Source: Dehalococcoidia bacterium (GTDB lineage: Bacteria > Chloroflexota > Dehalococcoidia > Lucifugimonadales > Australimonadaceae). From it: 64,000 nucleotides of DNA. A program made the translations under genes and the position numbers. The notes beneath the pieces are model-generated. The model did no database searches, was not told where the DNA came from, and saw only the letters and a program-made list of their open reading frames with translations. Of this stretch, positions 7,568 to 63,178 are shown piece by piece. The stretch lies in contig CBDFLS010000002.1 of assembly GCA_965249185.1 (NCBI GenBank), forward strand, positions 1,933,594 through 1,997,593, read 5' to 3'. The first letter of the stretch is position 1. Each line of letters begins with the position of its first letter.

Positions 7568-7568
7568 G

Positions 7569-9994: not shown

Positions 9995-9996
9995 GA

Positions 9997-13506: not shown

Positions 13507-13517
13507 CGGCGCATTTC

Positions 13518-37133: not shown

Positions 37134-37883
37134 ATGAAGGCGCTAGTGCTCTGTGGAGGATTGGGAAAACGTTTGGGAGCCCTCACGCGAGAAACGCCCA
37201 AGCCCATGCTGCAGATAGCGGACCGGCCACTGCTTGCTTACACGCTTGAGTATCTCGTAGCCAATGGGTTCGACCAGATCGCCATCAACCTCCACTTCAG
37301 GCCGGAGGTGATCACGGGCTACGTGAGCGATGGATCACAGTTCGGCGCGCACGTTCACTACTCCTACGAGGACACACTGTTGGGGACCGCCGGAGCCGTA
37401 AAGCGGCTCGAAGACTACTTCGGTACTGACCGGCTGTTTCTCGTTGTCCATGGAGACTTGCTCATCGATCAGGACCTAGCGGCGATGGTGGAGGGCCACC
37501 AGTCCCATGGAGCCATCGCGACCCTGCTGTTGCATCAGCGGGCGGGGTCCAACAGTCTCATAGACATGGACGGCAATGGCCGCATCACCGATCTCCTCGA
37601 GCGACCCTCAGAGAAGGAACGCAAGGAGCGGCCATATCCCTGGGTTAATTCCGGGCTTTATCTTTTTGGCCCCCGGATATTCTCTTACATCCCTCCCGGA
37701 GAGCCAGTGGACTTTCCGAAAGGTGTGTTCCAAAGAATATTCGGGCTGGAGCCGCTGTTCGGTTTCCCGCTCACCGGCTACCGGTGCGCCATCGACTCGG
37801 CCGACCGGTATAAGGAGGCCGCTCTAGCGGTACAGAGCGGCAGCTATGCCGTCCCGAAGACCTCGTTACGAGGAGGGAATTAA
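37134..37883 (+). CDS. sugar-1-phosphate nucleotidyltransferase (HddC/mannose-1-P guanylyltransferase-like)
   Basis: 249 aa with the LCGGLGKRLGALTRETPKPML N-terminal signature. Confidence 0.8.
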   Translation: MKALVLCGGLGKRLGALTRETPKPMLQIADRPLLAYTLEYLVANGFDQIAINLHFRPEVITGYVSDGSQFGAHVHYSYEDTLLGTAGAVKRLEDYFGTDRLFLVVHGDLLIDQDLAAMVEGHQSHGAIATLLLHQRAGSNSLIDMDGNGRITDLLERPSEKERKERPYPWVNSGLYLFGPRIFSYIPPGEPVDFPKGVFQRIFGLEPLFGFPLTGYRCAIDSADRYKEAALAVQSGSYAVPKTSLRGGN

Positions 37884-39039
37884 GCTGGAGCAGAAAACCG
37901 TATTCTTCGGACCATTTGTTGGCGAGATGGGCTGGGAGCTGCTGTACTGGCATGGCTGGGTGAGAAAGGTTTCCCGGACACACTTTCGTGACTACCGCAA
38001 GATCGTGGCCAGCTTCCCGGGACGTGAGCCCTTCTACCCGGAGGCGGACGAATATTGGTCTCACCCACGGAAATTCGTGGATGTTCTCAAATCGTCCCAC
38101 GGCTATGTGACTGACTTTTGGAGGAATGGACAGCCGTCCCCCGATCAGGTGGTGGTGGAGCGGAAGTACGGATTTATTCCCCGGGTAAGGCACTCGTCCT
38201 TATCGCTGGACTCTGAGCGCCCGCCCGATGTTGAGAAGGCTGCGGAGGCTCTGCTGAAGACGTACGCGGCACGGCTTCCGGAGGACACCGAGTTCTTTGT
38301 TCCCTGGCGCCGGAATCGCTTTGAGGCGGACGGACTGGAATTCGGAACGTCCTATCCGGAGAATCCGAAGTCTTGGAAAGACTTTGTGCAAGAGGCCATG
38401 CCGTTTGGGGCGCAGGATTTCGAGCTACTCCAGCCGACCAGTCGAGGCTCGGCCCTCCTGGCCGAGCGAGTCGGTCCGGACGCGCGGCTACTTTGCGTGT
38501 TTCCCCGTAACCGGCGGCTCCGAAGGCCGGACAAAAATTGGCCCCGGGAGGACTATGTAAAGCTGTTGCAGCAGCTGCAGCGTCGGTATCCCGAGCTGAC
38601 CGTGGCGGTGCTCGGCGCCCCGGGTGAGGCCTACTTCGATGATGGTGTTCCATCTGAATGGGTCGACCTCATCAATGTCCCCAGCGATGCGCGCTTGGAC
38701 ATGCAGGTAGCTGCGTTGCAGCAGGGTGCCCTGGCGCTCGGCAGCATGTCGGGCGCTATTCTCTTTGCCCTGGCGGCGGGCTGCCCTGCGATCACTTGGG
38801 GATGGCGCGGCGCAGACGTTGCGTACCATGAGCAGAACGTATTGAAAACACGATTCGTCTACTACCCGAGGATGACCGCGCCGGTGAACCACATCTTTAC
38901 GCTGGCCTCCGGCATGATTGATGGCGTGCTACCTCCATCTCATGAGGATGGTCGGCCTTGGGACCCAGAGGGCTACGACAGGATGCGATTCCCGGGGTCA
39001 GGGGTTCTTAGAAGAGTCCGTCGCCTGTGGGCCTGGTGA
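37846..39039 (+). CDS. hypothetical protein, possible GT-B glycosyltransferase (GT9 heptosyltransferase-like C-terminus)
   Basis: 397 aa if ATG 37846 is used (38-nt overlap with the upstream gene). The conserved-looking FFGPFVGEMGWEL lies before the next ATG at 37927. The C-terminal NWP...LGSMSGAILFALAAGCPAITWG resembles the GT9 DSG..H.A.A.G.P region. The call rests on context and a weak motif. Confidence 0.45.
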   Translation: MPSRRPRYEEGIKLEQKTVFFGPFVGEMGWELLYWHGWVRKVSRTHFRDYRKIVASFPGREPFYPEADEYWSHPRKFVDVLKSSHGYVTDFWRNGQPSPDQVVVERKYGFIPRVRHSSLSLDSERPPDVEKAAEALLKTYAARLPEDTEFFVPWRRNRFEADGLEFGTSYPENPKSWKDFVQEAMPFGAQDFELLQPTSRGSALLAERVGPDARLLCVFPRNRRLRRPDKNWPREDYVKLLQQLQRRYPELTVAVLGAPGEAYFDDGVPSEWVDLINVPSDARLDMQVAALQQGALALGSMSGAILFALAAGCPAITWGWRGADVAYHEQNVLKTRFVYYPRMTAPVNHIFTLASGMIDGVLPPSHEDGRPWDPEGYDRMRFPGSGVLRRVRRLWAW

Positions 39040-39385
39040 CAAGGGAGCGGAAGGATGCCACCATACGGCGGTTACTAGGTCAGTTAAGACGAAAGCTTGA
39101 AACCCTCTAGGTCGCTTTCGTTATGGGAGAGGCGACTTCACAGTGGTCCGTCGGAATGGGATTGAGATCACGTCCACTAGGTGGAACCCAACTGCGCAAA
39201 ACCTCGTGTTTGGCTGGCATGCGACGTGGCGGAAGCAAGATGAGGTATTTCGGTGGGTCATTGATAATGGTTTTCACTTATGCCTAGCATGTCACCTGAA
39301 GGTTTACTCGAAATGAGCCCCACTGAGATAGGATGGGAAAAACGGACACCAAAGTCGGATAAGATAGAGCGACGGAGGTGTCAGT

Positions 39386-39703
39386 ATGAAAGGTGTCCCT
39401 CAAGGAAGATACACGAGGGAATTCCGCCAGGAAGCAGTGAAGCTGGTAACGGAAGAGAGGCTATCATTGCCGGAGGCAGCCCGCCGGTTGTCCCTGGCGC
39501 CATCGACGTTAGGGTACTGGGTGAAGGCACAAAGGGCCGGCAAACTGGGAGATGTCGGCAAGACGTACAGGCCCTTGACTGAAGTAGAGATGGATTTGGC
39601 CCGGACTAAGAAGGAACTGGCGGAAGTGAAGATGGAGCGGGACATACTAAAAAAAGCGGCCGCGTACTTTGCCAAGGAGTCGCTGCCCGGTACGCGGCGA
39701 TGA
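39386..39703 (+). CDS. IS3-family transposase OrfA (HTH)
   Basis: 105 aa. YTREFRQEAVKLV...SLPEAARRLSLAPSTLGYWV HTH region and a leucine-zipper-like C-terminus. Confidence 0.85.
   Translation: MKGVPQGRYTREFRQEAVKLVTEERLSLPEAARRLSLAPSTLGYWVKAQRAGKLGDVGKTYRPLTEVEMDLARTKKELAEVKMERDILKKAAAYFAKESLPGTRR
39649..39655 (+). other. programmed -1 ribosomal frameshift heptamer (A AAA AAA) for OrfAB fusion
   Basis: A seven-A run followed by G, read in the orfA frame as cuA AAA AAA Gcg. It lies 45 nt before the orfA stop, with orfB in the -1 frame. Confidence 0.65.
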
Positions 39704-40560
39704 ATGAGTTGCGGCTCAAGTATCCAGTCCGGATGATGCGACGGATTATGAATGTATCGGCCAGCGGCTACTATGCGTGGGTGGACCGGCCGCTGTCCAA
39801 GCGGGCACAGGAGGAAGTGCGGCTGGAGCTGGAGATAATGGCGGCCCACCAGCGGAATAGACAGACCTATGGCCCGGAACGGTTACAGCGCGATCTGGCG
39901 GAGCATGGCGTTCGGGTGGGTGTTTGCCGGATCAAGCGGATCCGGCAAAAGCTCGGCATACGCTGTAAACAGAAGAGGAGATTCAAGACTACCACTAACT
40001 CCGCGCACAGACTGCCAGTTGCGGATAACTTGTTGGGCCAGCAGTTCAAGGTCAGTCAGCCCAACGCCGTGTGGGTGAGTGACATCACCTATATACCGAC
40101 TGATGAAGGCTGGCTATACCTGGCGGGCCACAAGGACCTGTTCACCGGAGAGCTCGTGGGCTATGCCATGGGAGAGCGGATGACCAGGAATCTGGTTAGT
40201 CAGTCTCTATTCCGGGCGCTGAGAGCCAAACGCCCCGCGAGGGGACTGATACATCACTCTGACCGGGGCTCTCAGTATTGCTCCCAGGAGTACAGAAATC
40301 TTATGGAGCGCTCTGGCCTGAGATCATCCATGAGCGGGAAAGGGAACTGTTTTGATAATGCGCCGATGGAGAGCTTCTGGGGAACACTCAAGCAGGAGCT
40401 AGTCCATCACCGTCATTATCGAAGTAGACAGGAAGCAATTCGAGATATGACAGAATATATCGAGATCTTCTATAACAGGCAGCGCCGCCAGGCCAGGCTG
40501 GGATTCCTGTCACCTGCGGCCTTTCAACAAAGATTCTATGCAGGATTACTCGCAGCTTGA
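39700..40560 (+). CDS. IS3-family transposase OrfB (DDE integrase core)
   Basis: 286 aa. WVSDITYIPT, HHSDRGSQY and GNCFDNAPMESFW motifs. Lies in the -1 frame relative to orfA. Confidence 0.9.
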   Translation: MNELRLKYPVRMMRRIMNVSASGYYAWVDRPLSKRAQEEVRLELEIMAAHQRNRQTYGPERLQRDLAEHGVRVGVCRIKRIRQKLGIRCKQKRRFKTTTNSAHRLPVADNLLGQQFKVSQPNAVWVSDITYIPTDEGWLYLAGHKDLFTGELVGYAMGERMTRNLVSQSLFRALRAKRPARGLIHHSDRGSQYCSQEYRNLMERSGLRSSMSGKGNCFDNAPMESFWGTLKQELVHHRHYRSRQEAIRDMTEYIEIFYNRQRRQARLGFLSPAAFQQRFYAGLLAA

Positions 40561-41467
40561 AAGGTTTGGTGTCCACTATTGCCATCCGACCCCACACTGA
40601 GAAATTTCGGGCCATCGCCAGTCGCTTGCGTGTCGTTAAGAGCATGCAACAGGCACAGGGCGGTATTCACCAACCCTCGGCAATTGAGGCATGGCTTGAC
40701 CTGGACTCGGCCCTGTTTTGGGACGAGCGCTGGCTGCGGCGTTTTCGCCATCCCCACATGCACCTGCACAATGGCACTATGAACTGGCCTAACCGGAGGC
40801 CTCGACACGAACGGTACCAGGATTGGTATACCCTTGGGACGTTTAGAGAAGCAGGTCCGTTATCAGACTTTCAACGCCTGAAACGGAGGGTAGCGGACTT
40901 CTATGACACGGCGCGGGGACTCGGTTTCTTGGCATGGATGTACAGAGATCTGGCGAGGCAGGTGCCAGCAGATATCATCCAACGAGTGTCCGACTGTCCA
41001 GTAGGTCGCCCATTCCATTTGCTAACGCCCAAAGGCCGTTGGCTAACAGAGCCGGTTCTCCGACACGCCTATTATGTGGGTCAGCTAGCACAGTCATTGC
41101 CGCCGTCTTACTGGGATGGCGCTGCAGTTCTGGAGATAGGGGCGGGATATGGGAGTCTTGCACGTCTGCTCAAGCGTTTCTTCCCGCATATCCGATACGT
41201 GATGACGGATCTGCCCGAGCGACTCGTCTTGCAGGCATACTACCTGGTTCACAGTTTCCCTGGCGCGACATTCGACATCATTGATGGCACCTCGAATACT
41301 GGTCAACCCACTGCAGACTTTACCTTCGTTCCCACCTGGCGTCTGGCCGACATCCCCGATCGAAGCATCGACATAGTTGTCAATACCCAGAGCATGCAAG
41401 AGATGAAATTGGAACAAGTTGATTACTATTTGGCCCATGTTGAGCGCATGGCGAGGGGGTATTTTTA

Positions 41468-42312
41468 GGGTATAGTCCCAAAACAGCCACCTGTGAGAGA
41501 ATGGTGGCATGGGACGGAAGATTGGGTGCCCTCGATGTCAACACGCCAAGAGCTGGGGCATTCGGCGAGGTAAGAGTCGTTGTGCAGCCTGCCACTACGA
41601 GTGGGTGCCCAGGGCGCTGCCGCTTCGGTTGTCGCCAGGGGAGTGGCGGCGACTGTTGCGCTGGTTCGTCTTGGGGCAGAGTGCCGAGGTGATTGCCCAG
41701 GAGGCCCGCCTGGAGCGAAAGCGAGTCCTGCGCGCCCTGATCGTGGTGCGCCAGGCCATGGTCCGGGACGTTCCCCATGTCTTCTCCGGCGTGGTGGAGG
41801 TCGACGAGACCTACCTGGGAGGTTCCTGGCGCAACAGGCGCCTGGCAAAGCGTGTTCAGGGCACGAAGCGGGGCCGTGGAACCACTAAGCAAGCTGTCTT
41901 TGGGATCCTGTGTCGAGGTGGCCTGGTGTGGGCGCAAGTGGTACCTAACGTGGAAGCCAAGACGCTGCTGCCGCTCCTGCACCAACGCGTGCAACGTGGC
42001 TCCATCGTCTGCTCGGACACCTTTACCAGCTACACGGGCGTCGCAGCGGGGGGCTACGTCCACCGGCTTGTGGACCACAGCCAGGCGTTCAGCGATCGGC
42101 AAGGGAGCCACGTCAACGGCTTGGAGGGCTTCTGGGGTTATCTCAAGCGGCGTCTGGCAGCCAAAGGGGGAGTCCGCCGAGAACGGCTGCCCCTCTATCT
42201 TGCTGAGTATGTCTGGCGCTACAATCATCGGCGTCTGTTGGGACCAGAACAGGTTAAGACATTGTTCAAGCTGCTTCAAAGCTAATCCGGTGGCTAAAAC
42301 GGGACTTTACCC
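41468..42312 (+). mobile_element. IS1595-family insertion sequence, copy 4 (845 bp)
   Basis: Same ends as copy 1. Flanked by ATTTTTA (41461-41467) and ATTTTTA (42313-42319). Confidence 0.9.
41509..42285 (+). CDS. IS1595-family transposase
   Basis: 258 aa with a single difference from copy 1 (S17G). Confidence 0.9.
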   Translation: MGRKIGCPRCQHAKSWGIRRGKSRCAACHYEWVPRALPLRLSPGEWRRLLRWFVLGQSAEVIAQEARLERKRVLRALIVVRQAMVRDVPHVFSGVVEVDETYLGGSWRNRRLAKRVQGTKRGRGTTKQAVFGILCRGGLVWAQVVPNVEAKTLLPLLHQRVQRGSIVCSDTFTSYTGVAAGGYVHRLVDHSQAFSDRQGSHVNGLEGFWGYLKRRLAAKGGVRRERLPLYLAEYVWRYNHRRLLGPEQVKTLFKLLQS

Positions 42313-43996: not shown

Positions 43997-45538
43997 ATGG
44001 CTACTAGTAGCTGGAAGCCTCAGCCGATGCTCAAGAGTCTGGCCTATTTAGCCGGCTCTGGGGTTCTTATCTCTCTGATTCGCTTGCCAGTTGGCATCAT
44101 CTCCCGCGGAATTCTGGGCCCAAGCATCTTCGGAATAGTTGCCACCATGGAACTGGCCTTCAGCTACTCCGGCTATGCCAATCTGGGGATCACACGGTCG
44201 ATGCAACGTGAGCTTCCATATTCGTTGGGAGCCGGGGACGAACTTCGCGCCAGGGCAATCTCCGAAACGGCACTGGCGTTTTCGTTGATATCAGGAGCGC
44301 TTTCGGCTGGTCTCGTTGTCGCATTGGCCTTCCTGCTGCTGCCGGACGCAGGCGGCACATTCATGCCGGCCGTTATCGCTGTGTATGCATCGGTTATTGT
44401 GGCCTGGCAGTTCGCGCAATATCAGATCGCGAGGGCGCGTTCCTTTGAGATGTTCCAGCTCATCAGCCGGGTGACGGTAGTTGTGGCGCTCGTCTACGCG
44501 GTGGTGGCCATCGTTGCGATATACTTATGGGGGATCTACGGCTTCCTCACTGCGCTCACAGTAAATGTTCTTCTCCAGTTACTTCTGCTAGCGTTGTTCC
44601 AACCCCGAACTGTTGCAATCCGACTCCGCGGCACCGAGCTCCGGCGCCTCATAATCATGGGCCTCCCCATGGCTGCAGGTGGGGTGCTCTACACCTTGAA
44701 CATTACTGCCGACCAATTGGTAGTAGTCTCGGTTCTCGGCGCGGAATCTTTGGGTGTCTATTCTGTAGCAGTGCTGGGCAGGATATATCTGTGGCAGGTG
44801 GCCCATAGCTTTGCCTCTGTGTGGCAACCGCGTCTCCAGGTGCTGTACGGGCAGACCCATGATCCCGCATGGTTAGCCGAGAAGATTGTCGAGCCGTGTC
44901 AGGTCTTGGCCTTTTCGACACCCATCGTTTTCGGTTTGGCATTCTTGACAGGTCAGTTGATCGTGGGCCTGGCTCTGCCGGACTTCGTCGAAGGTGTGGC
45001 AGCGTTCCAGGTGTTGCTCCTGGCTGTGTATCTGCGGGTGATGCGTACGCTTCCTGGTGTGTACATAGACACAATCAAACGGCAGAACGTAAGCCTGCTC
45101 ATAGGAGCAATTGCAACCGCAGTTTCACTTTTGGCGGTGGTGCTTTTTCTAGAGGCGGGGCTCGGTTTACAGGGGGCGGCCGGCGGGGCCACGGTAGGCG
45201 CTCTCGTTCATTACGGGATCACCGCAGGATATCTATCGTCCAAGTCGCGCAGACCTCTTTTCATGCTGTTGCGTCTGTTCTTGCTACTGCTTCCAATGGT
45301 TTACGCGTACGGTATCCTGTTGGCTCTGGACTGGTGGATTCCCTGGAGCGTTGATGACCAGCTCGCATCTGGAATCCTCCGTGCCCTCTATCGTGGCGCA
45401 CTTTATTTGATAGCCATGTCCCCGTTGGCCCTCTTGCTCTTTCGGTCAATCAGCAGGTCCTCCTTCTTGCGGTCTACGCTGCGTTGGAGACAGGCGCCTG
45501 GGGCTGCCGAGGGTGGGTTGGATAGATCGGACGAATAG
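43997..45538 (+). CDS. Wzx-type polysaccharide flippase (MOP superfamily)
   Basis: 513 aa with about 12-14 hydrophobic segments, in a polysaccharide-locus context. Confidence 0.75.
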   Translation: MATSSWKPQPMLKSLAYLAGSGVLISLIRLPVGIISRGILGPSIFGIVATMELAFSYSGYANLGITRSMQRELPYSLGAGDELRARAISETALAFSLISGALSAGLVVALAFLLLPDAGGTFMPAVIAVYASVIVAWQFAQYQIARARSFEMFQLISRVTVVVALVYAVVAIVAIYLWGIYGFLTALTVNVLLQLLLLALFQPRTVAIRLRGTELRRLIIMGLPMAAGGVLYTLNITADQLVVVSVLGAESLGVYSVAVLGRIYLWQVAHSFASVWQPRLQVLYGQTHDPAWLAEKIVEPCQVLAFSTPIVFGLAFLTGQLIVGLALPDFVEGVAAFQVLLLAVYLRVMRTLPGVYIDTIKRQNVSLLIGAIATAVSLLAVVLFLEAGLGLQGAAGGATVGALVHYGITAGYLSSKSRRPLFMLLRLFLLLLPMVYAYGILLALDWWIPWSVDDQLASGILRALYRGALYLIAMSPLALLLFRSISRSSFLRSTLRWRQAPGAAEGGLDRSDE

Positions 45539-45615: not shown

Positions 45616-46362
45616 ATGGGAATTGTAAAGAATATCCTATCGATGAAAGCCATTCCTCCCGTGTCCACGCCTTACAGTGACTACGCCGCGTTGGACTTGA
45701 GCGAGAATTTTCATTTTCACTGGCGCAATGTCAGGTTTGTGATGGACGATGAGGAATTTGATCAATTTTGCACTCTTGTGGGGACTGCCAAGCACAGATG
45801 GGAGAAAATGGGCAAGCCCACAACGCATGAGAATGCCCACAAGGGTGAGCAATACACGATGGCCACAGCGAAGATCAAGGATCACCCGGGCTCCAACAAC
45901 CCATTCATAGCTGACGAGGGGATTAGGTTGGAGCTATCGCAGTGGGCTGATTGCATCCACGTCCATTGGAAGTGGATGCGATTTGAGCTTGACTACCAAG
46001 AGTTCTTGGACTTCGCCGATTCCATGACGGAGGCAGGGGAAAAACTACGGTCGCATCCCTCTTTCACAACCTCTCCTAGGAGGTTTGGCACGCATCACGT
46101 GGCTTGTCCGCGAGGTAGAGTGGACCAGGTCGGCGATTCTGAGTTCTGGACAGAGGCGGAGCAGGATAGCTGGCTAGACGACAGACATCGCACTATCTTC
46201 CTGGATGCCGAGGACGCCTCCCAGGTGAATTTGCCGTATGCCACCCTAGAAGAGAATCTTGGAACGGTTCGAGGGCGGCATATATTCATACAAGACAATA
46301 GCGTACTCCGGACAGTGGGTCGCTTTCTGAAGCGCATGGCAGATCGAGCGCTACAGAGATAG
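45616..46362 (+). CDS. hypothetical protein with an internal duplicated HxHW...RF..D..EF motif
   Basis: 248 aa. AGGAG 13 nt upstream of the ATG. The two repeats are NFHFHWRNVRFVMDDEEFDQF and CIHVHWKWMRFELDYQEFLDF. No family was recognised. The gene is visibly AT-richer than its surroundings. Confidence 0.6.
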   Translation: MGIVKNILSMKAIPPVSTPYSDYAALDLSENFHFHWRNVRFVMDDEEFDQFCTLVGTAKHRWEKMGKPTTHENAHKGEQYTMATAKIKDHPGSNNPFIADEGIRLELSQWADCIHVHWKWMRFELDYQEFLDFADSMTEAGEKLRSHPSFTTSPRRFGTHHVACPRGRVDQVGDSEFWTEAEQDSWLDDRHRTIFLDAEDASQVNLPYATLEENLGTVRGRHIFIQDNSVLRTVGRFLKRMADRALQR

Positions 46363-48029: not shown

Positions 48030-48563
48030 ATGTTTGCTGACATCTTGTCGCGGGAGCGATTGGGAACCGTGGCCGTCACCGCACTGGCGGTGTTGGGTGC
48101 GGGATATGTGGTGGCGAAAGAGAGCGTTTTGGCAATAGTGCTCTCAATCGCCGTCTTGGTGGTTGCCGGCGTCGTTGTTGCTATCACACGAAAACCCGTG
48201 TGGGCAGCATACGCCATACTATTTACCGCGCCCCTGATTGCATACCGTAGTGAGCTTCTGGGCTTCAATGTTTCGTTGCAAAGGATTTTGCTCTTTGTTG
48301 GCATCAGCGCCGTGCTCATGCGAGCGCCCGCGCGGGGGCGTATGAGGCTCCGCTTCCCAGTGGCCGCCCTGATCTTCGCAGGCTTTATCGTCTTCGAATT
48401 GTTTGGCGTTATGAAGACTGGAAAGTTGGACGCGGCGACACACAAGCTTGGCATTCTTATGGTCGGCTGGTTAATCCTGGAATTCCTAGCGAATATGCTG
48501 GATTCTCGTGAGAAGGTAATCCAAGGGTTTAAACCGACATTTCCTTCTTTAGAACTCTGGTAG
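48030..48563 (+). pseudogene. Wzy/O-antigen-ligase-family polymerase, N-terminal fragment
   Basis: Polytopic. Native sequence runs to 48533 (...EKVIQGFK). The remaining codons up to the stop are read from inserted DNA. Confidence 0.7.
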
Positions 48564-48875
48564 CTGAGAGGTGCCAATGCCTCTGCCACGATCCTTGAGC
48601 CGACGTGCCTGCAACAATGGTGACCAGTTGGCGCTTGCAACTCCCTGCTGTGCCGCTCCAGCGTCAGTGCTTCTACGGTAGATGATAATGGAATCGAGCG
48701 GCCAACGCATCCATAATTTTGGGGCAGACCCTGGAGCGCCAGGTCGTCTCAGCCGAACCCACTCCCGTAGTGGTTCGGGGGATCGGCACTGCCAACCGAA
48801 TGAGGTGACGTCGCCGCCATTCACATGGCTATACTGGCTATAAGGGAGGTCGAGCGCTTACGCTTACAGTGTTTG

Positions 48876-48963
48876 AGCGGCTGCCGCGGACGCCTCTGAA
48901 CGACAGACGCCCAATCCTTCCACCTTTGGCGTCCAGAACGGCTGCCGTGGACGCCTCCAGAAC
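48876..48963 (+). repeat. pair of ~26-nt direct repeats inside the unassigned left part of the composite insert
   Basis: AGCGGCTGCCGCGGACGCCTCTGAAC (48876-48901) and AACGGCTGCCGTGGACGCCTCCAGAAC (48937-48963). The second overlaps the hairpin GGCGTCCA...TGGACGCC. Confidence 0.6.
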
Positions 48964-49100
48964 TGGTAGGTTCGACATATGGCCCTCTCTGTAAACCGTC
49001 AGGGAAAATGGGACACCTGAGAGGGGTGGAAAACCCGAGAGTCTGAGAGTGGTGTGAGCTCCTGAAGCGAGGGTAAAGTACCTCATGAAAGGAGCGGACC

Positions 49101-49512
49101 GTGTCCCAGTCACAAGAGAGCAAGGCAGATGCTGCCCAGCAGCGGAGCGAGGAGACCAGGTCTTTCGTCCGCACGGTGAAGGCGGCAACCCGACGTAGAT
49201 ACACCCCCGAAGAGAAGATCCTTGTCGTCCTGGAGGGCTTTCGCCGGGAGGTCACTGTCAATGACCTGTGCAGGCGAGAGGGGATCAAGCCCCACTCCTA
49301 CCACCCACGCGTGGACCAAGGAGTTCATGGAGGCTGGCAAGGAGAGGCTTACCCGTGAGACGGTGCGGGACGCCACGGGCCAGGAGATCCAGCAACTCAG
49401 GCGTGACAACGACGAGCTCAAGGAGCTGGTGGCCGACCTGTCCCTGGAGGACTACCGTATCAAAAAAACGGCTATCCCAGTGCCTGCCGACGACGTCGGT
49501 ACCAACGCATGA
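49101..49512 (+). pseudogene. IS3-family OrfA, frameshifted
   Basis: RRRYTPEEKILVVLEGFRREVTVNDLCRREGIKPHSY continues in another frame as ..WTKEFMEAGKERL...LKELVADLSLEDYRIKK. This implies a 1-nt indel near 49300. Confidence 0.7.
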
Positions 49513-50166
49513 GCGCGTCCGAGAAGACGACGGTCCTGGCCAGGGTAGCTTCGTCCACGCTTCCAAAGCGTCAGGTACTCAAGGACCTGGGTGTCCCCAA
49601 GAGCACCTACTATCGGTGGCTGACGCGCGAGCAACGGTGCCAAGGGCTTGAGAATCAACCGGAAGGCGGCCTGGCACCCTGGAACCGCCTGAGTCAACCT
49701 GAGGAGCAAGCGGTCCGGACGGTGGCACGTCGAGCGCCTGAACTGAGCTGTCGTCAACTTGCTGCCTGGATCACCGACAACCAGGGCTTCTCCGTCTCCG
49801 AGTCCACGGTCTACCGCATCCTGCGCAGGGAGGGTCTGGTCAAGTCACCCAAGATGCAGCTCAAGGCCGGCAAGGAGTACCACCGCAAGACCACCGGTCC
49901 CAACCAGATGTGGGCAACCGACGCCTCCTACTTCAAGGTCATCGGGTGGGGCTACTACTACTTGGTGACGGTGATGGATGACTTCTCCCGCTTCATCCTG
50001 GCCCATAAGCTCCAACGCGACACGACCTCAGCCGGAATTACCCATATCAAGCTGCCTGGGTCCAAGCAACGCACCATCCTCGACGAGAGCCATCGTAGTA
50101 TCAGTCACGGATGCCGTCAACCATCCAATCAAGCGCACAAAACCATCTCTCGGCGTGGTGAGTTAG
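49509..50166 (+). pseudogene. IS3-family OrfB (integrase core), frame-broken and 3'-truncated
   Basis: NQMWATDASYFKVIGWGYYYLVTVMDDFSRFILAHKL is followed by a frame change (..SVTDAVNHPIKRTKPSLGVVS*). The HSDxGSQY block and everything after it are absent. Confidence 0.7.
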
Positions 50167-51689
50167 CGGCCCCAGGCAGCGGAGGTGGCTTTCACCACGT
50201 TTGCACTCCCTTCAAACTCCTCCGGGCGCGCACCTCGCCCTTGGTTGCCTCTCTTCACCTCTGATGACCTCAAGGATAATCGCTACCCTGGTGCTGGATG
50301 GAGCCCGGCGATACGCTCCAACACTTGCCGGAATACCTCCCGGGACACTGCCACCTCAGCAAGCTGAAACACCAACCTCCTGGCATGCCGCACCAGACGT
50401 CCACCCATCTTGATGAGCTTGGTCTGCACGCTTCGCAGTGACCAGTGTTTCACTGACTCTGGCAAAGTCAGCCTTCTCATGAAGTTGCCCAGGTTGTAGG
50501 CCAGCACAAACAGCCACAGCCTCACCTGGTTAGCAACGAACCTGTGACACGAGAGCCGCGTCCAGTTCAGGGCGTATTTACCTTCCTTGATCCACTGCTC
50601 GGCCGTGCCCCGCCCGTTGTAGAAGTGGGTTACGCCTGCCGGCGGTAGGTTGAGGTTGGTGACGACGAACCCGACCCTCGGGAATAGCTCACCCTGGCGC
50701 CACTCCACCTTGGCGACCACACGCCGGGGAATGTCCCAGCTCTGGGCCTGGTAAACGAAGTCGTGATACCGGACTACGGGCTTCCCTTCGACAGGCTCAG
50801 GGCAGGCTTTAGGCGGCCTGCCCACGGGCCGCTTCAGCAGGTGCCGGATGTTTCCTTGTAATACCTCGTTGGCCGGAAGCCGCATAGCGTAGCCAGTGTC
50901 CCTTGACTCCAGGTACTCGTACACCTCGGGCTTGGCAAAGGCAGCATCGGCCCGGAACAGCAGCCGGACTCCTTTCTCCTGGTATCGCTTCACGACTGGC
51001 TCCAGAACCTCCCGCCACCGCTCAGCGCTGTGGACGTTGCCCGGGCGAAGCATTGCACCTTCGCAATCTCCGAAATGGTTGAACAGGAAGAGCGGGTGAT
51101 AACATACGGACTCGAAGTGGCCGTTGTAGGCGACTCCCTCTTGCTGCCCATGCACCGGGCTTTCAGAGCTGTCCATGTCTAGGATAACTCGCTGGTGAGA
51201 TGTCTGGGCCATGGCCCTGTCCACCCACTCAACATTCAGGCGCGCAAGCCCATCCAGGTTTTCCTCTTCGGTTAACACCTCAGTCTCAAATCGGCTCATA
51301 GTATTGGTGCTGGCTGCCTGCTTATCAGTACCTTGCCACCCGACGATGACACGCATAGCCGGGTCTTGGGCAAGCCGTTCAGCGTCGTTGGTGTCCTCAT
51401 AGCCAGCGAGACGGCTATACACCGATTGTCTGAGCAAGGGCAACAGCGGGTGTTGCACATTGCGGCCGGTGCGGCTTTCATGGATATAATCGTTGGCTGT
51501 CTCTGTGAGCCCCAGAGCGGCATCAAGCTCGCGGCATGCCAGGAGTCCGGCGTCCGAGGTGATGGTAGCGCCACGAAAATCCAGGCGGACTCTGCGGTCG
51601 AATTGGAGCTTCAAAGGGGTGTCGGAGCTTTCACCCATTGGGTGCCTCCAGCGAGATTGCGGTATCCAGAACTAGACCCGCTAGCTCGG
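50158..51689 (-). mobile_element. IS1380-family insertion sequence (tentative ends)
   Basis: Imperfect terminal repeat: GTGAGTTAGCGGCCCCAG at 50158 versus the reverse complement CCGAGCTAGCGGGTCTAG ending at 51689, 13/18 matches. The left end coincides with the point where the IS3-like OrfB homology stops. Confidence 0.5.
50283..51638 (-). CDS. IS1380-family DDE transposase
   Basis: 451 aa. ITSDAGLLACRELD...GYEDTNDAERL N-terminal region and C-terminal FYNGRGTAEQWIKEGK...LSCHRFVANQVRL, as in IS1380-type transposases. Confidence 0.8.
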   Translation of the reverse strand: MGESSDTPLKLQFDRRVRLDFRGATITSDAGLLACRELDAALGLTETANDYIHESRTGRNVQHPLLPLLRQSVYSRLAGYEDTNDAERLAQDPAMRVIVGWQGTDKQAASTNTMSRFETEVLTEEENLDGLARLNVEWVDRAMAQTSHQRVILDMDSSESPVHGQQEGVAYNGHFESVCYHPLFLFNHFGDCEGAMLRPGNVHSAERWREVLEPVVKRYQEKGVRLLFRADAAFAKPEVYEYLESRDTGYAMRLPANEVLQGNIRHLLKRPVGRPPKACPEPVEGKPVVRYHDFVYQAQSWDIPRRVVAKVEWRQGELFPRVGFVVTNLNLPPAGVTHFYNGRGTAEQWIKEGKYALNWTRLSCHRFVANQVRLWLFVLAYNLGNFMRRLTLPESVKHWSLRSVQTKLIKMGGRLVRHARRLVFQLAEVAVSREVFRQVLERIAGLHPAPG

Positions 51690-51788
51690 CCAGTCTAGCA
51701 CCCACACTGCCCATAATGCCCAGGTAGGCGGCTCAAATAGGCAGCACTCTCACCGGATTACGACGCACCCACGCGGCTGATCTGGGAA

Positions 51789-52286
51789 ATGTGGGTTAAA
51801 TTCTTTGTGTTGGGGTCGGTGTATCCCGTGGTATTGGGGGTCTATCAGTGGTTCTATGCGGTTCCAGGACAGATCAATGTTCCTCTGGCCACGCTTTTCT
51901 CTCCTCGCTTGACCAGCGATGACCGGCTTCGTTGGGGTGTTCATGCACTCGGCGAAAATCTCCTGAGGATAAGTAGCACACTGGGAACCCCCACTGCATT
52001 TGGGGAGTACCTGGCTATTGTGCTCATAATGGTATTGGCGCTGGTATGGTGGGTGCCCATGAGCTGGCCCTGGGCGCTGGCTGGTTATGCGTATTCAATC
52101 ATCGTTATGCTCCTGATCATATCTACCTTCTCGAGGAGCGCCTGGCCGATAACTCTTTTTGGTCTAATGATGTTGGTCGCGGTGACGCTGTTTACGAGCA
52201 AGAGATTTTCAAAGATTCTCTTGCTGACATTGGCAATGGTCCTAGCGGCCGCGGCGTCTTTGACCCTGGTCCCAGCAATTGTTCTA
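51789..52286 (+). pseudogene. Wzy/O-antigen-ligase-family polymerase, second fragment
   Basis: KFFVLGSVYPVVLGVYQW...STLGTPTAFGEYLAIVL...STFSRSAW. Native sequence from 51801 joins in frame to 48533. It is cut by IS1595 copy 5 at 52286/52287. Confidence 0.75.
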
Positions 52287-53131
52287 GGGTATAGTCCCAA
52301 AACAGCCACCTGTGAGAGAATGGTGGCATGGGACGGAAGATTGGGTGCCCTCGATGTCAACACGCCAAGAGCTGGAGCATTCGGCGAGGTAAGAGTCGTT
52401 GTGCAGCCTGCCACTACGAGTGGGTGCCCAGGGCGCTGCCGCTTCGGTTGTCGCCAGGGGAGTGGCGGCGACTGTTGCGCTGGTTCGTCTTGGGGCAGAG
52501 TGCCGAGGTGATTGCCCAGGAGGCCCGCCTGGAGCGAAAGCGAGTCCTGCGAGCCCTGATCGTGGTGCGCCAGGCCATGGTCCGGGACGTTCCCCATGTC
52601 TTCTCCGGCGTGGTGGAGGTCGACGAGACCTACCTGGGAGGTTCCTGGCGCAACAGGCGCCTGGCAAAGCGTGTTCAGGGCACGAAGCGGGGCCGTGGAA
52701 CCACTAAGCAAGCTGTCTTTGGGATCCTGTGTCGAGGTGGCCTGGTGTGGGCGCAAGTGGTACCTAACGTGGAAGCCAAGACGCTGCTGCCGCTCCTGCA
52801 CCAACGCGTGCAACGTGGCTCCATCGTCTGCTCGGACACCTTTACCAGCTACACGGGTGTCGCAGCGGGGGGCTACGTCCACCGGCTTGTGGACCACAGC
52901 CAGGCGTTCAGCGATCGGCAAGGGAGCCACGTCAACGGCTTGGAGGGCTTCTGGGGTTATCTCAAGCGGCGTCTGGCAGCCAAAGGGGGAGTCCGCCGAG
53001 AACGGCTGCCCCTCTATCTTGCTGAGTATGTCTGGCGCTACAATCATCGGCGTCTGTTGGGACCAGAACAGGTTAAGACATTGTTCAAGCTGCTTCAAAG
53101 CTAATCCGGTGGCTAAAACGGGACTTTACCC
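52287..53131 (+). mobile_element. IS1595-family insertion sequence, copy 5 (845 bp)
   Basis: Same ends as copy 1. A perfect 8-bp duplication, TTGTTCTA, lies at 52279-52286 and 53132-53139. Confidence 0.9.
52328..53104 (+). CDS. IS1595-family transposase
   Basis: 258 aa. The protein is identical to copy 1, with one synonymous change. Confidence 0.9.
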   Translation: MGRKIGCPRCQHAKSWSIRRGKSRCAACHYEWVPRALPLRLSPGEWRRLLRWFVLGQSAEVIAQEARLERKRVLRALIVVRQAMVRDVPHVFSGVVEVDETYLGGSWRNRRLAKRVQGTKRGRGTTKQAVFGILCRGGLVWAQVVPNVEAKTLLPLLHQRVQRGSIVCSDTFTSYTGVAAGGYVHRLVDHSQAFSDRQGSHVNGLEGFWGYLKRRLAAKGGVRRERLPLYLAEYVWRYNHRRLLGPEQVKTLFKLLQS

Positions 53132-53139
53132 TTGTTCTA

Positions 53140-53357
53140 AAAGGCAGTCTGCTACCCATTGTCGGAGCAATGTTTGGCGATTTCGCACAAGACGCACGAC
53201 TCGCGGAGCATCTTGTGAGCAAAGTGGCCGCGATACGCTTTTTTGCTGATAGTCCGATTATCGGTGTGGGGATCAGCAACTTCGGCCAACTTTCTGGCCA
53301 AGGGGGTCTGCTCTCATCAAGTGAGTCAACGTTATTTACAGAGCTCGCCGAAGGGGG
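53140..53357 (+). pseudogene. Wzy/O-antigen-ligase-family polymerase, third fragment
   Basis: KGSLLPIVGAMFGDFAQD...FADSPIIGVGISNFGQL...TELAEGG. In frame with the preceding fragment once IS1595 copy 5 and one duplication copy are removed. Confidence 0.75.
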
Positions 53358-54725
53358 GGTCACGTCCCATAGAGTGGTGTAAGAGTACGTCATCCTGTTG
53401 ATATCGTCTAGGCCGCTGCCTCTGCGAGTTCGGCTCTGGGTAGAGCTTCGTTGGAGGTGGTTACCTCCTGTGTCATGTATCGACGGCCGACGGCCCACTC
53501 GTCGTGCTGCTCAGCTAGGACGGCGCCGACCAGGCGACGGACAGCTGGGCGGTTAGGGAAGATGCCCACCACATCGGTGCGGCGCCGTATCTCCTTGTTG
53601 AGACGCTCCAGGGGGTTGTTGGACCAGATCTTCTTCCAGTGGGCGAGTGGGAAGCTGGAGAAGGCCAGGACGTCGGGTCCAGCCTCGTCCAGTCGAGAGG
53701 CGACCTGTGGGAACGGGTCCTGGAGCTGAGCAATCACCCGCTCGAGTTGGGCATGCACCTCCTGAGGGGACGGCTGCTGGTAGATGGTGCGTACCATGGT
53801 GGCCACCCAGGGCTGAGCGCTCCTGGGGACCCGAGTGAGCAGGTTGGTCATGAAGTGGGTGCGGCACCGCTGCCAACTGGCCCCACCGAAGACAGTTGCG
53901 ATGGCATCCCTGAGTCCCTGATGAGCGTCCGATACCACCAGTTCCACCCCGCCGAGGCCCCTGGCGACCAGTGAGCGCAGGAAGGCTAACCAGAAGGCGC
54001 CGTCTTCACTGGTACCCACGTCCATCCCAACGATCTCACGCTTGCCCTCGCTATTGACCGCCGTCGCCACCACCACGCTGACGTTGACTATCCTACCGGC
54101 CTCTCTGACCTTCTGGGTTAGTGCGTCCAGCCACAGGTAGGGATATGATCCGCCGTCCAGCGGCCGACCCAGGAAGCTCTCCACCACCCCGTCCAGCTCC
54201 TGGCAGATACGCGACACTTGGCTCTTTGAGATACCCTCGCACCCAAGAGCCTTGACCAGATCATCCACTCGCCTCGTCGATACACCCTCCACATACGCCT
54301 GCTGGATCACCGCCAGCAGAGCTCGCTCGCTGCGACGCCGTGGCTCCAGCAGGCTCGGAAAGTAGCTCCCCTCCCTCAGCTTGGGTATCTGCAACTCCAT
54401 GGTCCCTACGCGAGTGTCCCATGCTCGAGACCGGTACCCGTTGCGCTGGGTCACCCGCTCAGGGTTGCGTTCTCCATACCCAGCACCGGTCCTCGATGAC
54501 ACATCAGCCTCCATGATCTCCTCGACCAGCACTCTCAGTGCCTCTCGTAGAAAGTCCACGTCACCGTCGACTCCCCTCTTGCGCATTAGCTCAAGCAGGT
54601 CCATCCTTTCCTTGACCACCGTTGTCCTCCTTTCTCAGGCTCGTCTTTGCCCGCTAAGGATGACGTGGTGGTCTCTCTTCATCCAGACCCTCTACTCTTG
54701 TTACACCACTTCCTGGGACTCTACT
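53358..54725 (-). mobile_element. IS256-family insertion sequence (1368 bp)
   Basis: The terminal repeats share GTCCCA..AGTGGTGTAA..GAG. An 8-bp duplication, GAAGGGGG, lies at 53350-53357 and 54726-54733. Confidence 0.85.
53408..54619 (-). CDS. IS256-family (mutator-type) transposase
   Basis: 403 aa. NGYRSRAWDTRVGTMELQIPKLREGSYFPSLLEPRRR and YLWLDA motifs typical of IS256 transposases. Confidence 0.9.
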   Translation of the reverse strand: MVKERMDLLELMRKRGVDGDVDFLREALRVLVEEIMEADVSSRTGAGYGERNPERVTQRNGYRSRAWDTRVGTMELQIPKLREGSYFPSLLEPRRRSERALLAVIQQAYVEGVSTRRVDDLVKALGCEGISKSQVSRICQELDGVVESFLGRPLDGGSYPYLWLDALTQKVREAGRIVNVSVVVATAVNSEGKREIVGMDVGTSEDGAFWLAFLRSLVARGLGGVELVVSDAHQGLRDAIATVFGGASWQRCRTHFMTNLLTRVPRSAQPWVATMVRTIYQQPSPQEVHAQLERVIAQLQDPFPQVASRLDEAGPDVLAFSSFPLAHWKKIWSNNPLERLNKEIRRRTDVVGIFPNRPAVRRLVGAVLAEQHDEWAVGRRYMTQEVTTSNEALPRAELAEAAA

Positions 54726-55013
54726 GAAGGGGGACTGATCGGCGTGGGACTTTTGGTCGCCTTCAGTATCGCTGTTCTTCGTCCGTTATGGAAAAGAGTG
54801 CGCATCTCGTACAACGAGCCAGTTATGGGCGCTGTGGGGAGGGCACTGCTTGTTGGCATGGCCATTCTCTTTGTGAACAACATTCTCACTGAGACCTTAT
54901 TCAGAGACACCGCATGGGCTATCATGGGATTGGCTCTAGCATTTACATCATTGCGCCGGCAACCTGCGTTCAATCAGATTGGTGCAAAATCTGCTCCTTC
55001 CGCTCTCGAATAA
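54726..55013 (+). pseudogene. Wzy/O-antigen-ligase-family polymerase, C-terminal fragment
   Basis: EGGLIGVGLLVAFSIAVLRPL...AWAIMGLALAF. In frame with 53357 after removal of the IS256 element and one duplication copy. Confidence 0.75.
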
Positions 55014-61250: not shown

Positions 61251-62474
61251 CTGAACATTCTGATCCTTTCCCAGTTCTACAAGCCTGAGCCGCTTCCCAA
61301 GATTCATGAGCTGGCCGAGTCGCTTCAACAGCTCGGACATCGGGTAACGGTCATCACTGGCTTTCCGAACTATCCGGAGGGAAGGATCTACCCCGGTTAC
61401 AAGCTCCGTCCTTGGCGCACCGAAGTTGTCGCGGGGGTGCGCGTAATCAGGCTTCCCCTGTGGCCGGACCACAGCCGGTCGGCAGTCCGCCGCATGCTCA
61501 ACTACTTTTCCTTCGCCGTATCAGCGACCGTATTGGGCCCGCTGCTGTGCGGGCGGCAGGATGTGATGTATGTATGGCATCTACCGACTACGGTCGGAAT
61601 GGTCGCTTGGGTCATCCATCTTCTCCGCCGCGTGCCATTCCTTTATGGCGTGCATGACCTCTGGCCAGAGAGCGTAGTAGCGGCCGGAATGATGCGTGGA
61701 GGACCGCTGGTCAAGATATTGAATGGGCTCCAACGGTTCGTCTACTCAAGGGCGCATCTCATCGGCGTGGGGTCTCCAGGCTTCATCCCCCACCTGGAAT
61801 CCAAAAGAGTTCCACGCAGCAAGGTCCATCATCTTCCCGACTGGGCAGATGAGGAGGTCTTTCACCCAGTCGCTCGCGACGAAGAGCTGGCCAAGACTTT
61901 GGGTATGACTGAACGTTTTAACGTGGTCTTTGGCGGGCAGTTGGGCATAGCCCAAGGGCTCGATACCATAGTCGAGGCCGCTGAGCTGCTCCGCGAGCAA
62001 ACCGATATCCAGTTTGTGCTAGCCGGAGAGGGTGTGGAGAGGTCCAGGCTGGAGGCTAGAGTCCAACGAGCCGGATTGGAGAATGTACGGTTCTTGGGGC
62101 AGGTGCCGCCCGAGCAGATGAATCGAATCTACGGACTGTCCGATGTGCTGTTGGTACACTTGAAAGCCGGCTTCTTCTCCAGTCTGAGTATTCCGGGAAA
62201 GACCTATGCATATCTGGCTAGCGGAAAGCCCATGCTCGCCGCTCTGGATGGCAGCGCGGCACGGATGATTGAGGAGATTGGCGCCGCTCTAGTATGCTCA
62301 CCGGAGGACCCGCGGCGGATGGCGCAAGCCGTGCTCGATTTCCGGGCGATGACGCCGGCTGATCGCGAGAGGATGGGTGCTTTGGGCCTGGAGCGGTTCC
62401 GTTCCCACTATTCGCGGCGGGCCGGTGTGGCCCTACATGAAAAGATGCTCAGCTCCCTGGTCTGGCATGATTGA
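61251..62474 (+). pseudogene. WbuB-like family 4 glycosyltransferase lacking an in-frame canonical start codon
   Basis: Homology-like sequence LNILILSQFYKPEPLP...GHRVTVITGFPNYPEG starts at 61251. Frame 0 is open from 61155 but has no ATG, GTG or TTG before 61437. ATG 61241 is one base out of frame (ATGTGGCGCCCTG). Confidence 0.6.
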
Positions 62475-62536
62475 GCGTCCCAATACGGTGGAAGCCCGGC
62501 TCGGATACGGCCATTGATGACAGCAACACGCCATTT

Positions 62537-63178
62537 ATGACAGTAACACGATTGTACAAACGGCCTTTCGATCTGATGGTGCTGGTTATCGCGCATCTCC
62601 TCCTGCTGCCGGTCTGGATACTGCTCTGGATAGCGATTCCCATAGCTATCTGGTTGGATGATCGGGGGCCGGTGTTCTATCCACAACGCCGCATCGGAAA
62701 AGAGGGGCGCCCATTCCAACTGCTAAAATTCAGGACCATGGTGAGTAACGCGGATAATATCGGTCCGGGATGGACCGCGGAGACGGATGAGCGGGTCACT
62801 CGCGTAGGCAGAGTGCTCAGGCGGACCGCTTTGGACGAGCTTCCCCAAGTGGTGAATATCTTTCGGGGTGACATCAGCCTTGTGGGGCCCCGCGCGCTAC
62901 CGTTGAAAATGCACGAAGAGATGACGCTAGAAGAGCCAAGCTTTCCACTGCGTCTCCAGATCCGTCCGGGCCTTACGGGATTTGCGCAGCTCTACCTGGC
63001 TCGGCACTGCTCACCTCGAAAGCGGTTGCATTACGATCTGCTCTATATTAAGAAGCAGAGCCTGTGGGTGGATATGAAAATCGTTCTTTTGTCTGTTTGG
63101 CTTACGCTCACCGGCAAGTGGGGAACCGGCTCTCGCAAGGCAGAGCATACTTCCAAAAGCTACGAACAGGGTGTGTAA
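62537..63178 (+). CDS. priming phosphoglycosyl transferase (bacterial sugar transferase, PglC/WbaP C-terminal type)
   Basis: 213 aa from ATG 62537 (the track start TTG 62471 is also possible). YKRPFDL, KFRTM and DELPQVVNIFRGDISLVGPR motifs. Confidence 0.85.
   Translation: MTVTRLYKRPFDLMVLVIAHLLLLPVWILLWIAIPIAIWLDDRGPVFYPQRRIGKEGRPFQLLKFRTMVSNADNIGPGWTAETDERVTRVGRVLRRTALDELPQVVNIFRGDISLVGPRALPLKMHEEMTLEEPSFPLRLQIRPGLTGFAQLYLARHCSPRKRLHYDLLYIKKQSLWVDMKIVLLSVWLTLTGKWGTGSRKAEHTSKSYEQGV

Follow-up and report, generated by a model that had tools for sequence, protein, structure and literature searches.

A Wzy-like gene in a Chloroflexota surface-glycan locus is split into four pieces by three insertions, one of them apparently a composite IS1380-driven unit

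Results

One gene lies in four pieces within a surface-glycan locus

We analyzed a 64,000-nucleotide stretch of contig CBDFLS010000002.1 (hereafter, the window), which comes from the assembly of a Dehalococcoidia bacterium. A Pfam scan of its open reading frames (ORFs) revealed a surface-glycan locus that extends from 17.5 kb to the window end and carries dTDP-rhamnose genes, NeuB-type synthases, UDP-galactopyranose mutase, a heptose-nucleotide pathway, GT2 and GT4 glycosyltransferases and a pyruvyl transferase. Inside this locus, positions 48030-55013 are one gene in four colinear pieces, separated by three inserts that contain insertion sequences (ISs). The gene encodes a protein of the family that includes Wzy polymerases, and we refer to it as the Wzy-like gene. 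Its fragments and inserts are given below; each fragment queried alone matches the best full-length homologue, P0003, over the residues listed.

48030..48533, + strand: Wzy-like gene, fragment 1; codons 1-168; matches P0003 residues 25-180
48534..51795, - strand: insert 1, putative composite transposition unit, 3,262 bp; IS1380-type inverted ends and a 5-bp duplication
48534..48989, + strand: putatively captured DNA, part 1; left 456 bp of element X, with a terminus like the IS1380 left end
48990..50031, + strand: putatively captured DNA, part 2; IS3-family remnant, left 1,042 bp; orfA 49101-49358, orfB frameshifted and cut in the integrase core
50032..51795, - strand: complete IS1380-family element, 1,764 bp; PF13701 E = 3.7e-134, NF033539 E = 1.9e-116
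51801..52286, + strand: Wzy-like gene, fragment 2; codons 169-330; matches P0003 residues 182-329
52287..53131, + strand: insert 2, IS1595-family element, 845 bp, fifth copy in the window; transposase 52328-53104
53140..53357, + strand: Wzy-like gene, fragment 3; codons 331-403, with codon 403 split; matches P0003 residues 360-417
53358..54725, - strand: insert 3, IS256-family element, 1,368 bp; transposase 53408-54619 (- strand), 403 aa
54734..55013, + strand: Wzy-like gene, fragment 4; remainder of codon 403 to codon 495 plus stop; matches P0003 residues 419-501

The fragments are 504, 486, 218 and 280 nt long, and excision of 48534-51800, 52287-53139 and 53358-54733 in silico joined them into 1,488 nt that encode 495 sense codons and a stop, with no internal stop. 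This excision confirmed the four coordinates and the in-frame 495-aa join that an initial annotation had proposed from the DNA alone, and the junction peptides VIQGFK-FFVLGS, PAIVL-KGSLLP and ELAEGG-LIGVGL read in the joined ORF as quoted there.

When 1.84 billion cluster representatives were searched exhaustively with HMMER, the matches were of two kinds: the window's own fragment ORFs (P0001 and P0002 are identical to window ORFs, read-through into the inserts included) and full-length proteins of ~450-510 aa that align colinearly in one stretch. P0003 (508 aa, 37% identity, E = 2.5e-70) aligned over residues 24-500 with residues 13-484 of the joined protein as a single colinear stretch, and the ranges matched by the single fragments are consecutive and do not overlap. 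All four fragments match this one protein; they do not match different proteins. In an alignment of 26 sequences there were no indels at the junctions, all 12 invariant columns were retained in the joined protein, and the site of insert 3 fell within the LAEGG motif, the most conserved of the family. Because of the colinear P0003 matches and the indel-free junctions, we conclude that the fragments are consecutive parts of a single gene. A word-indexed homologue search with the joined protein found no match.

The product belongs to the Wzy_C / O-antigen-ligase-like superfamily

The Pfam model Wzy_C (PF04932), against which the initial annotation suggested checking the product, matched residues 267-410 of the joined protein (profile positions 3-148 of 149), spanning junctions 2 and 3. 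This O-antigen ligase/polymerase match is sub-threshold, as its own score of 22.5 bits (E = 1.1e-4) does not reach the gathering cut-off of 31.7 bits. That cut-off was passed by 9 of the 10 full-length homologues tested (32.7-59.1 bits), with P0007 below it at 25.2 bits. It is because these homologues pass the cut-off, and not through the score of the joined protein itself, that we assign the product to the superfamily. No NCBIfam model matches the joined protein.

Structural comparisons agreed with this assignment. A search of PDB sequences with the family profile matched a single entry, the O-antigen ligase WaaL 7TPG (chain 7tpg_B, E = 6.2e-6). An AlphaFold model built on the alignment (mean predicted local distance difference test score, pLDDT, 84.1; predicted template modelling score, pTM, 0.85) was all-helical and polytopic, with ~14 long helices and loops at 188-231 and 341-394, a topology consistent with a hydropathy scan. 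As modelled, the protein has the features of the family, i.e., about 10-14 membrane helices, a large extracytoplasmic loop and conserved Arg/His residues. R73, R85 and R224 are invariant and H354 is nearly invariant in the 26-sequence alignment. Foldseek placed WaaL chain 7tpg_B first among fold matches of the model (E = 1.2e-6, probability 1.00, template modelling (TM) scores 0.51/0.61) and FtsW, a SEDS protein, second. WaaL of Cupriavidus metallidurans (PDB 7TPG/7TPJ) has the polytopic all-helical fold in common with the model over 461 aligned columns. It differs in that identity is merely 13% and the window protein has extra N-terminal helices (495 aa vs 403-413). Together, these data establish the product as a polytopic membrane protein of the Wzy_C / O-antigen-ligase-like superfamily.

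Genomic context points to a polymerase

Two genes of the locus bear on what the product does:

43997-45538: Wzx-type flippase (Polysacc_synt_3)
62471-63178: initiating phosphoglycosyl transferase (Bac_transf)

With a flippase and an initiating phosphoglycosyl transferase, the locus has the make-up of a Wzx/Wzy-dependent locus. Judged by this genomic context only, the product is most likely the repeat-unit polymerase of the glycan locus. The initial label of a Wzy-like polymerase therefore stands for the family, while polymerase rather than ligase follows from the context only.

It is possible, if doubtful, that the product is instead a WaaL-like ligase or another enzyme of the O-antigen-ligase family, attaching glycan to an envelope acceptor. 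WaaL 7TPG is the only solved structure matched, by sequence profile and fold alike, and the Pfam Wzy_C family takes in both activities. However, no Wzy chain was among the PDB matches, so the WaaL match may merely reflect which structures are solved. The Wzy-like gene sits inside a variable glycan locus next to a Wzx-type flippase; the Wzx-dependent pathway requires a polymerase, and no other polymerase candidate was found among the window ORFs scanned. Typical lipid A-core lipopolysaccharide acceptors are, moreover, not expected in Chloroflexota. The GlmS homologues that carry taxon names, at 54-66% identity, are all from Chloroflexi, Dehalococcoidia or SAR202 metagenome-assembled genomes (MAGs), which points to a Chloroflexota source (the closest homologue is 91% identical).

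Inserts 2 and 3 are canonical IS elements

Insert 2 had been called the fifth IS1595 copy with a perfect 8-bp duplication, and both family models and sequence bear this out. Its transposase matches PF12762 (E = 7e-32) and NF033547 (E = 7.5e-41), and its zinc ribbon scores 23.0 bits, just under the cut-off of 25.4. The element has inverted repeats GGGTA(T/A)AGTCCC...AGCCACC and is flanked by a perfect 8-bp duplication, TTGTTCTA, whose left copy is the last 8 nt of fragment 2 and whose right copy is 53132-53139. These are the features of the IS1595 family, i.e., a DDE_Tnp_IS1595 transposase, an N-terminal zinc ribbon, inverted repeats and an 8-bp duplication.

The five IS1595 copies of the window (3728-4572, 14343-15187, 24109-24953, 41468-42312 and 52287-53131) differ from one another by 0-3 mismatches. 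Three are flanked by clean duplications of 7-8 bp that end in TA, and the copy at 24109 by a 7/8 match. The copy at 14343-15187 lacks any duplication and may therefore have taken part in an IS-mediated rearrangement whose partner lies beyond the window.

Insert 3 was likewise correctly assigned to the IS256 family, as shown by PF00872 (E = 2.1e-135), NF033543 (E = 2.8e-104) and the sequence itself. The 8-bp duplication GAAGGGGG lies at 53350-53357 on the left and at 54726-54733 on the right. Its inverted repeats are imperfect (22/40 positions match; core GTCCCA...AGTGGTGTAA), and together with the Mutator-type transposase and the 8-bp duplication they fit the family, whose duplications measure 8-9 bp.

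Insert 1 appears to be a composite unit moved by an IS1380-family transposase

Insert 1 had been described as a 3.3-kb composite of an IS3-like remnant and an IS1380-family element. Both components are present, but the description had missed that the whole insert has inverted ends and a target duplication of its own. The outer ends, CCGACATTTCC (48534-48544) and GGAAATGTGGG (51785-51795), are inverted and identical at 10/11 positions. They are bracketed by the 5-bp duplication TTAAA, with the left copy at 48529-48533 (the last 5 nt of fragment 1) and the right copy at 51796-51800. When we scanned the whole window for the outer-end 11-mer with at most one mismatch, the only two matches were the ends of insert 1.

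The right half of the insert is a complete element of the IS1380 family, in which duplications measure 4-5 bp; it has a DDE_Tnp_1_4 transposase and inverted repeats that begin with CC. Its transposase gene is at 50283-51638 (- strand, 451 aa) and its ends read CCCACATTTCC and CCGGAATTACC. The boundaries 50032-51795 were set by four copies on other contigs, which are 99.5-99.7% identical. One of these, in L003, is flanked by the 5-bp duplication TGTAG, and there the element has moved alone. In the window, there is no duplication where the right inverted repeat (IRR), at 50032, meets the IS3 remnant, and the left inverted repeat (IRL), at 51795, abuts the gene, followed by TTAAA. The only duplication candidate is TTAAA, 1,498 bp beyond the IRR and preceded by a 10/11 match to the IRL. 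This surrogate end, CCGACATTTCC, is closer to the IRL than is the element's native right end, which matches its left end at 7/11 positions.

The three other copies (at 2844-4607 in L001, L002 and L004) have no obvious 5-bp duplication directly at their ends, and some could likewise belong to longer transposition units. The L002 copy is followed immediately downstream by a second IS1380-family transposase.

The left half of the insert is made of two parts. The first, 48534-48989, comes from an element that we call X; it has no Pfam match and no detectable coding function. The second is the IS3-family remnant, with its left inverted repeat at 48990 (TGTAAACCGTCAGGG..., TGTAAACCGTCAGGGAAAATGGGACAC, TGTAAACCG...), an orfA that matches HTH_Tnp_1, and an orfB that matches HTH_32 and rve, the latter only at profile positions 2-53 of 102. 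The remnant thus has the hallmarks of its family (orfA HTH_Tnp_1, orfB rve core, TG...CA repeats), except that its right end is missing. It meets the IS1380-family element in the 32-nt junction sequence GCGACACGACCTCAGCCGGAATTACCCATATC.

Two contigs from another sample, L031 and L032, carry a counterpart of this entire 1,498-bp stretch, 48534-50031, with 99.6-99.7% identity. The surroundings there are unrelated, with ABC-transporter genes on one side and a SIMPL-domain gene on the other. The X::IS3 part thus exists elsewhere without the IS1380 element. The IS3 copy of L031 is intact (4890-6437, 1,548 bp, orfB of 364 aa) and has the right end that is absent in the window. The X part is 100% identical to L031/L032, and because this homology begins exactly at CCGACATTTCC, we take CCGACATTTCC to be a true element boundary.

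In L031/L032, X occupies 4434-4889 and ~6438-6625, on either side of the intact IS3 copy that it hosts. It is small and non-coding and has IS1380-like termini: CCGACATTTCC on the left and, possibly, GTGGAATTCCGG on the right in L031, which matches the IS1380 right end at 10/12 positions. X is perhaps a miniature, non-autonomous relative of the IS1380 family; in L031 we saw no target duplication at its borders.

Two other accounts of the left part were tried and rejected. A decayed IS1380 copy at 48534-49100 found no support, as tblastn and blastn comparisons with the IS1380 element were not significant and Pfam gave no match; only the 11-nt terminus is in common. The left edge of insert 1 is also not the end of the IS3 element itself, whose left repeat (TG...) lies at 48990, as the intact IS3 copy of L031 confirms.

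The simplest history that we can infer for insert 1 is a single transposition of the 3,262-bp composite unit by the IS1380 transposase. At the donor site, a complete IS1380-family element would have landed inside an IS3 copy that itself sat in X, an element with a terminus that matches the IS1380 left end at 10/11 positions. For the next move, the IS1380 transposase may have used its own left end and, as a surrogate partner, the X terminus, so that the whole stretch moved in one step and made the usual 5-bp duplication of the family. This is how ISEcp1 transposition units are made, and insert 1 shows several of their features: the duplication flanks the IS plus adjacent DNA, the outer end is IRL-like, and the cargo is on the IRR side.

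A stepwise alternative is that insert 1 was built in place, i.e., that X::IS3 inserted first, the IS1380 element then entered the IS3 copy, and the right halves of IS3 and X were lost by deletion, in which case the initial count of four mobile elements would be right. We consider this very unlikely. Nested IS insertions are common and X::IS3 does exist as a unit in L031 and L032, but the deletion would have had to stop exactly at the outer edge of X, leaving the IS1380 left end abutting TTAAA and the reading frame restored. Moreover, it is the IS1380 left end, and not the right terminus that X has in L031 (GTGGAATTCCGG), that closes the insert on the right. A 5-bp duplication together with 10/11 inverted termini at the exact junctions is very unlikely by chance; the 11-mer is expected ~1.5 times in 128 kb (both strands). 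Under the single transposition that we favour, the IS3 remnant arrived as cargo in a TTAAA-bracketed, IS1380-driven unit, and for this reason the gene was broken by three insertion events, not by four different elements.

The gene was thus inactivated by three separate events: the 3,262-bp unit at TTAAA, the 845-bp IS1595 element at TTGTTCTA and the 1,368-bp IS256 element at GAAGGGGG.

The insertions appear recent

Transposases identical to those of the inserts occur elsewhere, that of the IS1595 element on 54 contigs, that of the IS256 element on 76 and that of the IS1380 element on 7. Because the joined ORF has no stop or frameshift, the invariant residues are kept and the IS copies are near-identical to others, all three insertions appear to be recent. 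The locus proteins checked, all on a single 2.13-Mb contig, are singletons at 90% identity among ~15 billion proteins, and among GTDB representative genomes, searched with a pattern from a 6-sequence alignment, relatives are only 20-35% identical, about half of them labelled as Chloroflexota classes. Exact-protein look-ups of the flanking genes and fragment ORFs, made for an IS-free allele, had nothing on record. An IS-free allele was not found in the collections searched.

One reading of a triple hit in a surface-glycan gene is that loss of the polymer was positively selected (e.g., as an escape from phages or predators), that different cells carry different elements, and that the contig merges these alleles into an artificial triple hit. 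There are documented cases in which ISs inactivate capsule and O-antigen genes under phage pressure, an example being IS903B in Klebsiella wbaZ (PMC9769513). The window does come from a metagenome assembly, and a second gene of the locus, a methyltransferase-like ORF at 40557-41467, is likewise cut by an IS1595 copy. Even so, we regard this explanation as improbable. On the uninterrupted gene, neighbouring inserts are separated by 0.2-0.5 kb, and the full 7 kb would normally be covered by the reads of a long-read assembly, which the contig names suggest this to be. There is also no sequence sign of a join, as the duplications are intact at each insert and the reading frame is exact.

The cluster is real yet within expectation for an IS-rich genome

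The initial annotation stated that insertions were far more frequent in this gene than elsewhere in the window, and proposed as one explanation that the gene is a preferred, AT-richer target. The window holds eight insertion events: five IS1595 elements, a separate IS3-family element (~39.3-40.6 kb), the composite unit and the IS256 element. Three of the eight are in the Wzy-like gene, which makes up 2.8% of the IS-free backbone (53.7 kb). Under a uniform model, at least 3 of 8 events in one pre-chosen gene of 1,488 bp would be rare (P = 0.001). The cluster was picked post hoc, and the corresponding scan statistics for any 3 of 8 events are P = 0.10 within 1,488 bp and P = 0.026 within the observed 704 bp. 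When targets were weighted by AT content, the probability of any 3 of 8 within 1,488 bp was 0.17-0.26. The claim therefore holds as a description but is statistically marginal (P ~0.03-0.10 uniform, 0.17-0.26 AT-weighted).

The composition of the targets tells a similarly mixed story. The seven insertion sites measured all have a local GC of 38-58%, below the mean of 60.9% for the window. Of the 50-bp windows with a GC content no higher than 58%, 52%, 46% and 42%, the gene, with 2.8% of the length, accounts for 5.6%, 9%, 13% and 17%, respectively, or 2-6 times its length share. It is not AT-richer overall, its GC of 52.8% being equal to that of two intact neighbours (52.3% for 45616-46362 and 52.5% for the GT2 gene), and the IS256 target GAAGGGGG is GC-rich, whereas the IS1595 targets are AT-rich 7-8-mers ending in TA and the composite target is TTAAA.

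We therefore weighed whether the gene is a true insertion hot spot, to which composition (AT-rich micro-targets) or the state of its DNA or transcription, and not tolerance, draws transposases. The excess of low-GC 50-bp windows, the low GC of the measured sites and the AT-rich targets of the IS1595 elements and the composite unit speak for it. Yet three unrelated transposases were involved, one of them at the GC-rich target GAAGGGGG, equally AT-rich neighbours (45616-46362 and the GT2 gene) were left intact, and the AT-weighted model already produces 3 of 8 events in any 1.5 kb 17-26% of the time, so that no extra attraction is needed. We consider a hot spot unlikely, and it overlaps in part with gene decay instead of excluding it.

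Beyond the Wzy-like gene, only the 3' end of the methyltransferase-like ORF is clearly struck, and the ORF and Pfam map places the remaining insertions apparently between genes. Selection further narrows the neutral target for insertions. In the decay scenario that we favour, the first insertion would have killed the gene, and the dead gene would then have been neutral ground, relatively rich in AT-rich target sites, on which further insertions could build up in a genome with at least four active IS families. The cluster of insertions is real yet within expectation for an IS-rich genome, and the claim of a hot spot is weak.

Other features of the window

The methyltransferase-like ORF (40557-41467) has weak Methyltransf_12/25 matches; the IS1595 copy at 41468 truncates it at the 3' end, and its annotated start falls within the right end of the separate IS3-family element, which appears intact (~39331-40587; orfA 39386-39703, orfB 39700-40560). 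It may be a second damaged gene of the glycan locus.

GC is ~66-71% over most of a housekeeping block at 1-14000 (transaldolase-PGI fusion, G6PD, 6PGD, GlmS) and ~51-66%, mostly 55-62%, in the glycan locus (15000-64000), with the lowest values (52-53%) near the flippase, the polymerase-like gene and the GT2 gene. A drop of this kind is typical of surface-glycan regions that vary and may have been exchanged. In the housekeeping block, a 911-aa ORF (10771-13506, - strand) fuses a transaldolase domain to a phosphoglucose-isomerase domain, and an antisense ORF of 903 aa (10030-12741) with no Pfam match is probably a high-GC artefact. Two intact ORFs of the glycan locus have no significant Pfam family: 45616-46362 (+ strand, 248 aa), whose product has no other member in its 90%-identity cluster among the 15 billion proteins, and 37846-39039 (+ strand, 397 aa), for which there is only a faint GT9 hint (E = 0.27). 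An Rfam scan of the window found no RNA family.

Discussion

Our results show one 495-codon gene of a Chloroflexota Wzx/Wzy-type glycan locus that was inactivated by three transpositions, probably with neutral accumulation after the first. Several observations count against parts of this account. The Wzy_C score of the joined protein is below the cut-off, and NCBIfam has no matching model. Sequence and fold cannot separate Wzy from WaaL, and the sole structural match is a ligase. In the collections searched we found no IS-free allele or close relative, the best intact relative being 37% identical. Two scans of Joint Genome Institute (JGI) metagenomes for the donor arrangement X::IS3::IS1380, one with the IS1380/IS3 junction and one with the X terminus, were empty, and the chimeric 251-aa ORF is known only from the window contig. 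As the window is a metagenome contig, a chimeric join of strain variants is conceivable. Finally, the gene matches its intact neighbours in GC content.

Each element of the proposed history has precedent. ISEcp1 transposition units have 5-bp duplications and an IRL-like surrogate right end, and they capture DNA beyond the IRR (PMC12589106). Insert 1 resembles these units in its IS1380-family transposase, in cargo that lies beyond the IRR and downstream of the transposase gene, in a surrogate outer end homologous to the IRL, and in a 5-bp duplication that flanks the long unit and not the IS alone. It differs in that the surrogate end is supplied by X, itself a small mobile element, as its genuine terminus. 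This end is closer to the IRL (10/11) than is the IS1380 element's own right end (7/11), so that the insert could equally be named a composite transposon with two IRL-type ends. Its cargo also differs, consisting of IS debris with no resistance gene.

IS-inactivated polysaccharide genes are known as well. ISAba1 and ISAba23 interrupt genes of the Acinetobacter OCL1 locus (PMC4110982), and IS903B interrupts Klebsiella wbaZ (PMC9769513). These cases and ours have in common that a gene of a Wzx/Wzy-type locus is interrupted, with duplications intact and the gene restorable in silico. In contrast to them, the gene of the window has three insertions from three IS families, and its host is an uncultured environmental member of the Chloroflexota.

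IS-rich bacterial genomes are marked by IS expansion, by the accumulation of pseudogenes and by nesting of ISs within ISs. The window, which is a view of one 64-kb stretch, fits this pattern in that it holds many near-identical IS copies (five of IS1595 in 64 kb) and that its insertions lie in intergenic DNA, other IS elements and an already dead gene, with housekeeping genes spared. The gene is a recent IS-riddled pseudogene, a clear case of ordinary gene decay in an IS-rich genome. That ISs knock out glycan genes, nest and build up in dead DNA, and capture DNA in the manner of ISEcp1 is well established, and the present case is another instance. We give only a small chance to something broader. 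This could be a hot spot for several IS families in the gene or this part of the locus, or repeated selection for knock-outs, and the triple hit would then record recurrent surface-glycan switching in an environmental Chloroflexota population; more modestly, it could be the routine building of ISEcp1-like units by Chloroflexota IS1380 elements.

For annotation, a single pseudogene record should take in the four short ORFs, among them the chimeric read-through products of 177, 240, 251 and 210 aa, and the 3.3-kb insert 1 merits annotation as a single composite unit. It would be a clean, non-clinical example of an IS1380-family transposase moving adjacent DNA by means of a surrogate end. If such units were indeed made routinely in Chloroflexota, this would extend a mechanism known mainly from the capture of resistance genes in Enterobacterales. 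For the organism itself, the MAG probably no longer polymerises the glycan of this locus, which bears on predictions of its surface, its phage receptors and its biofilms.

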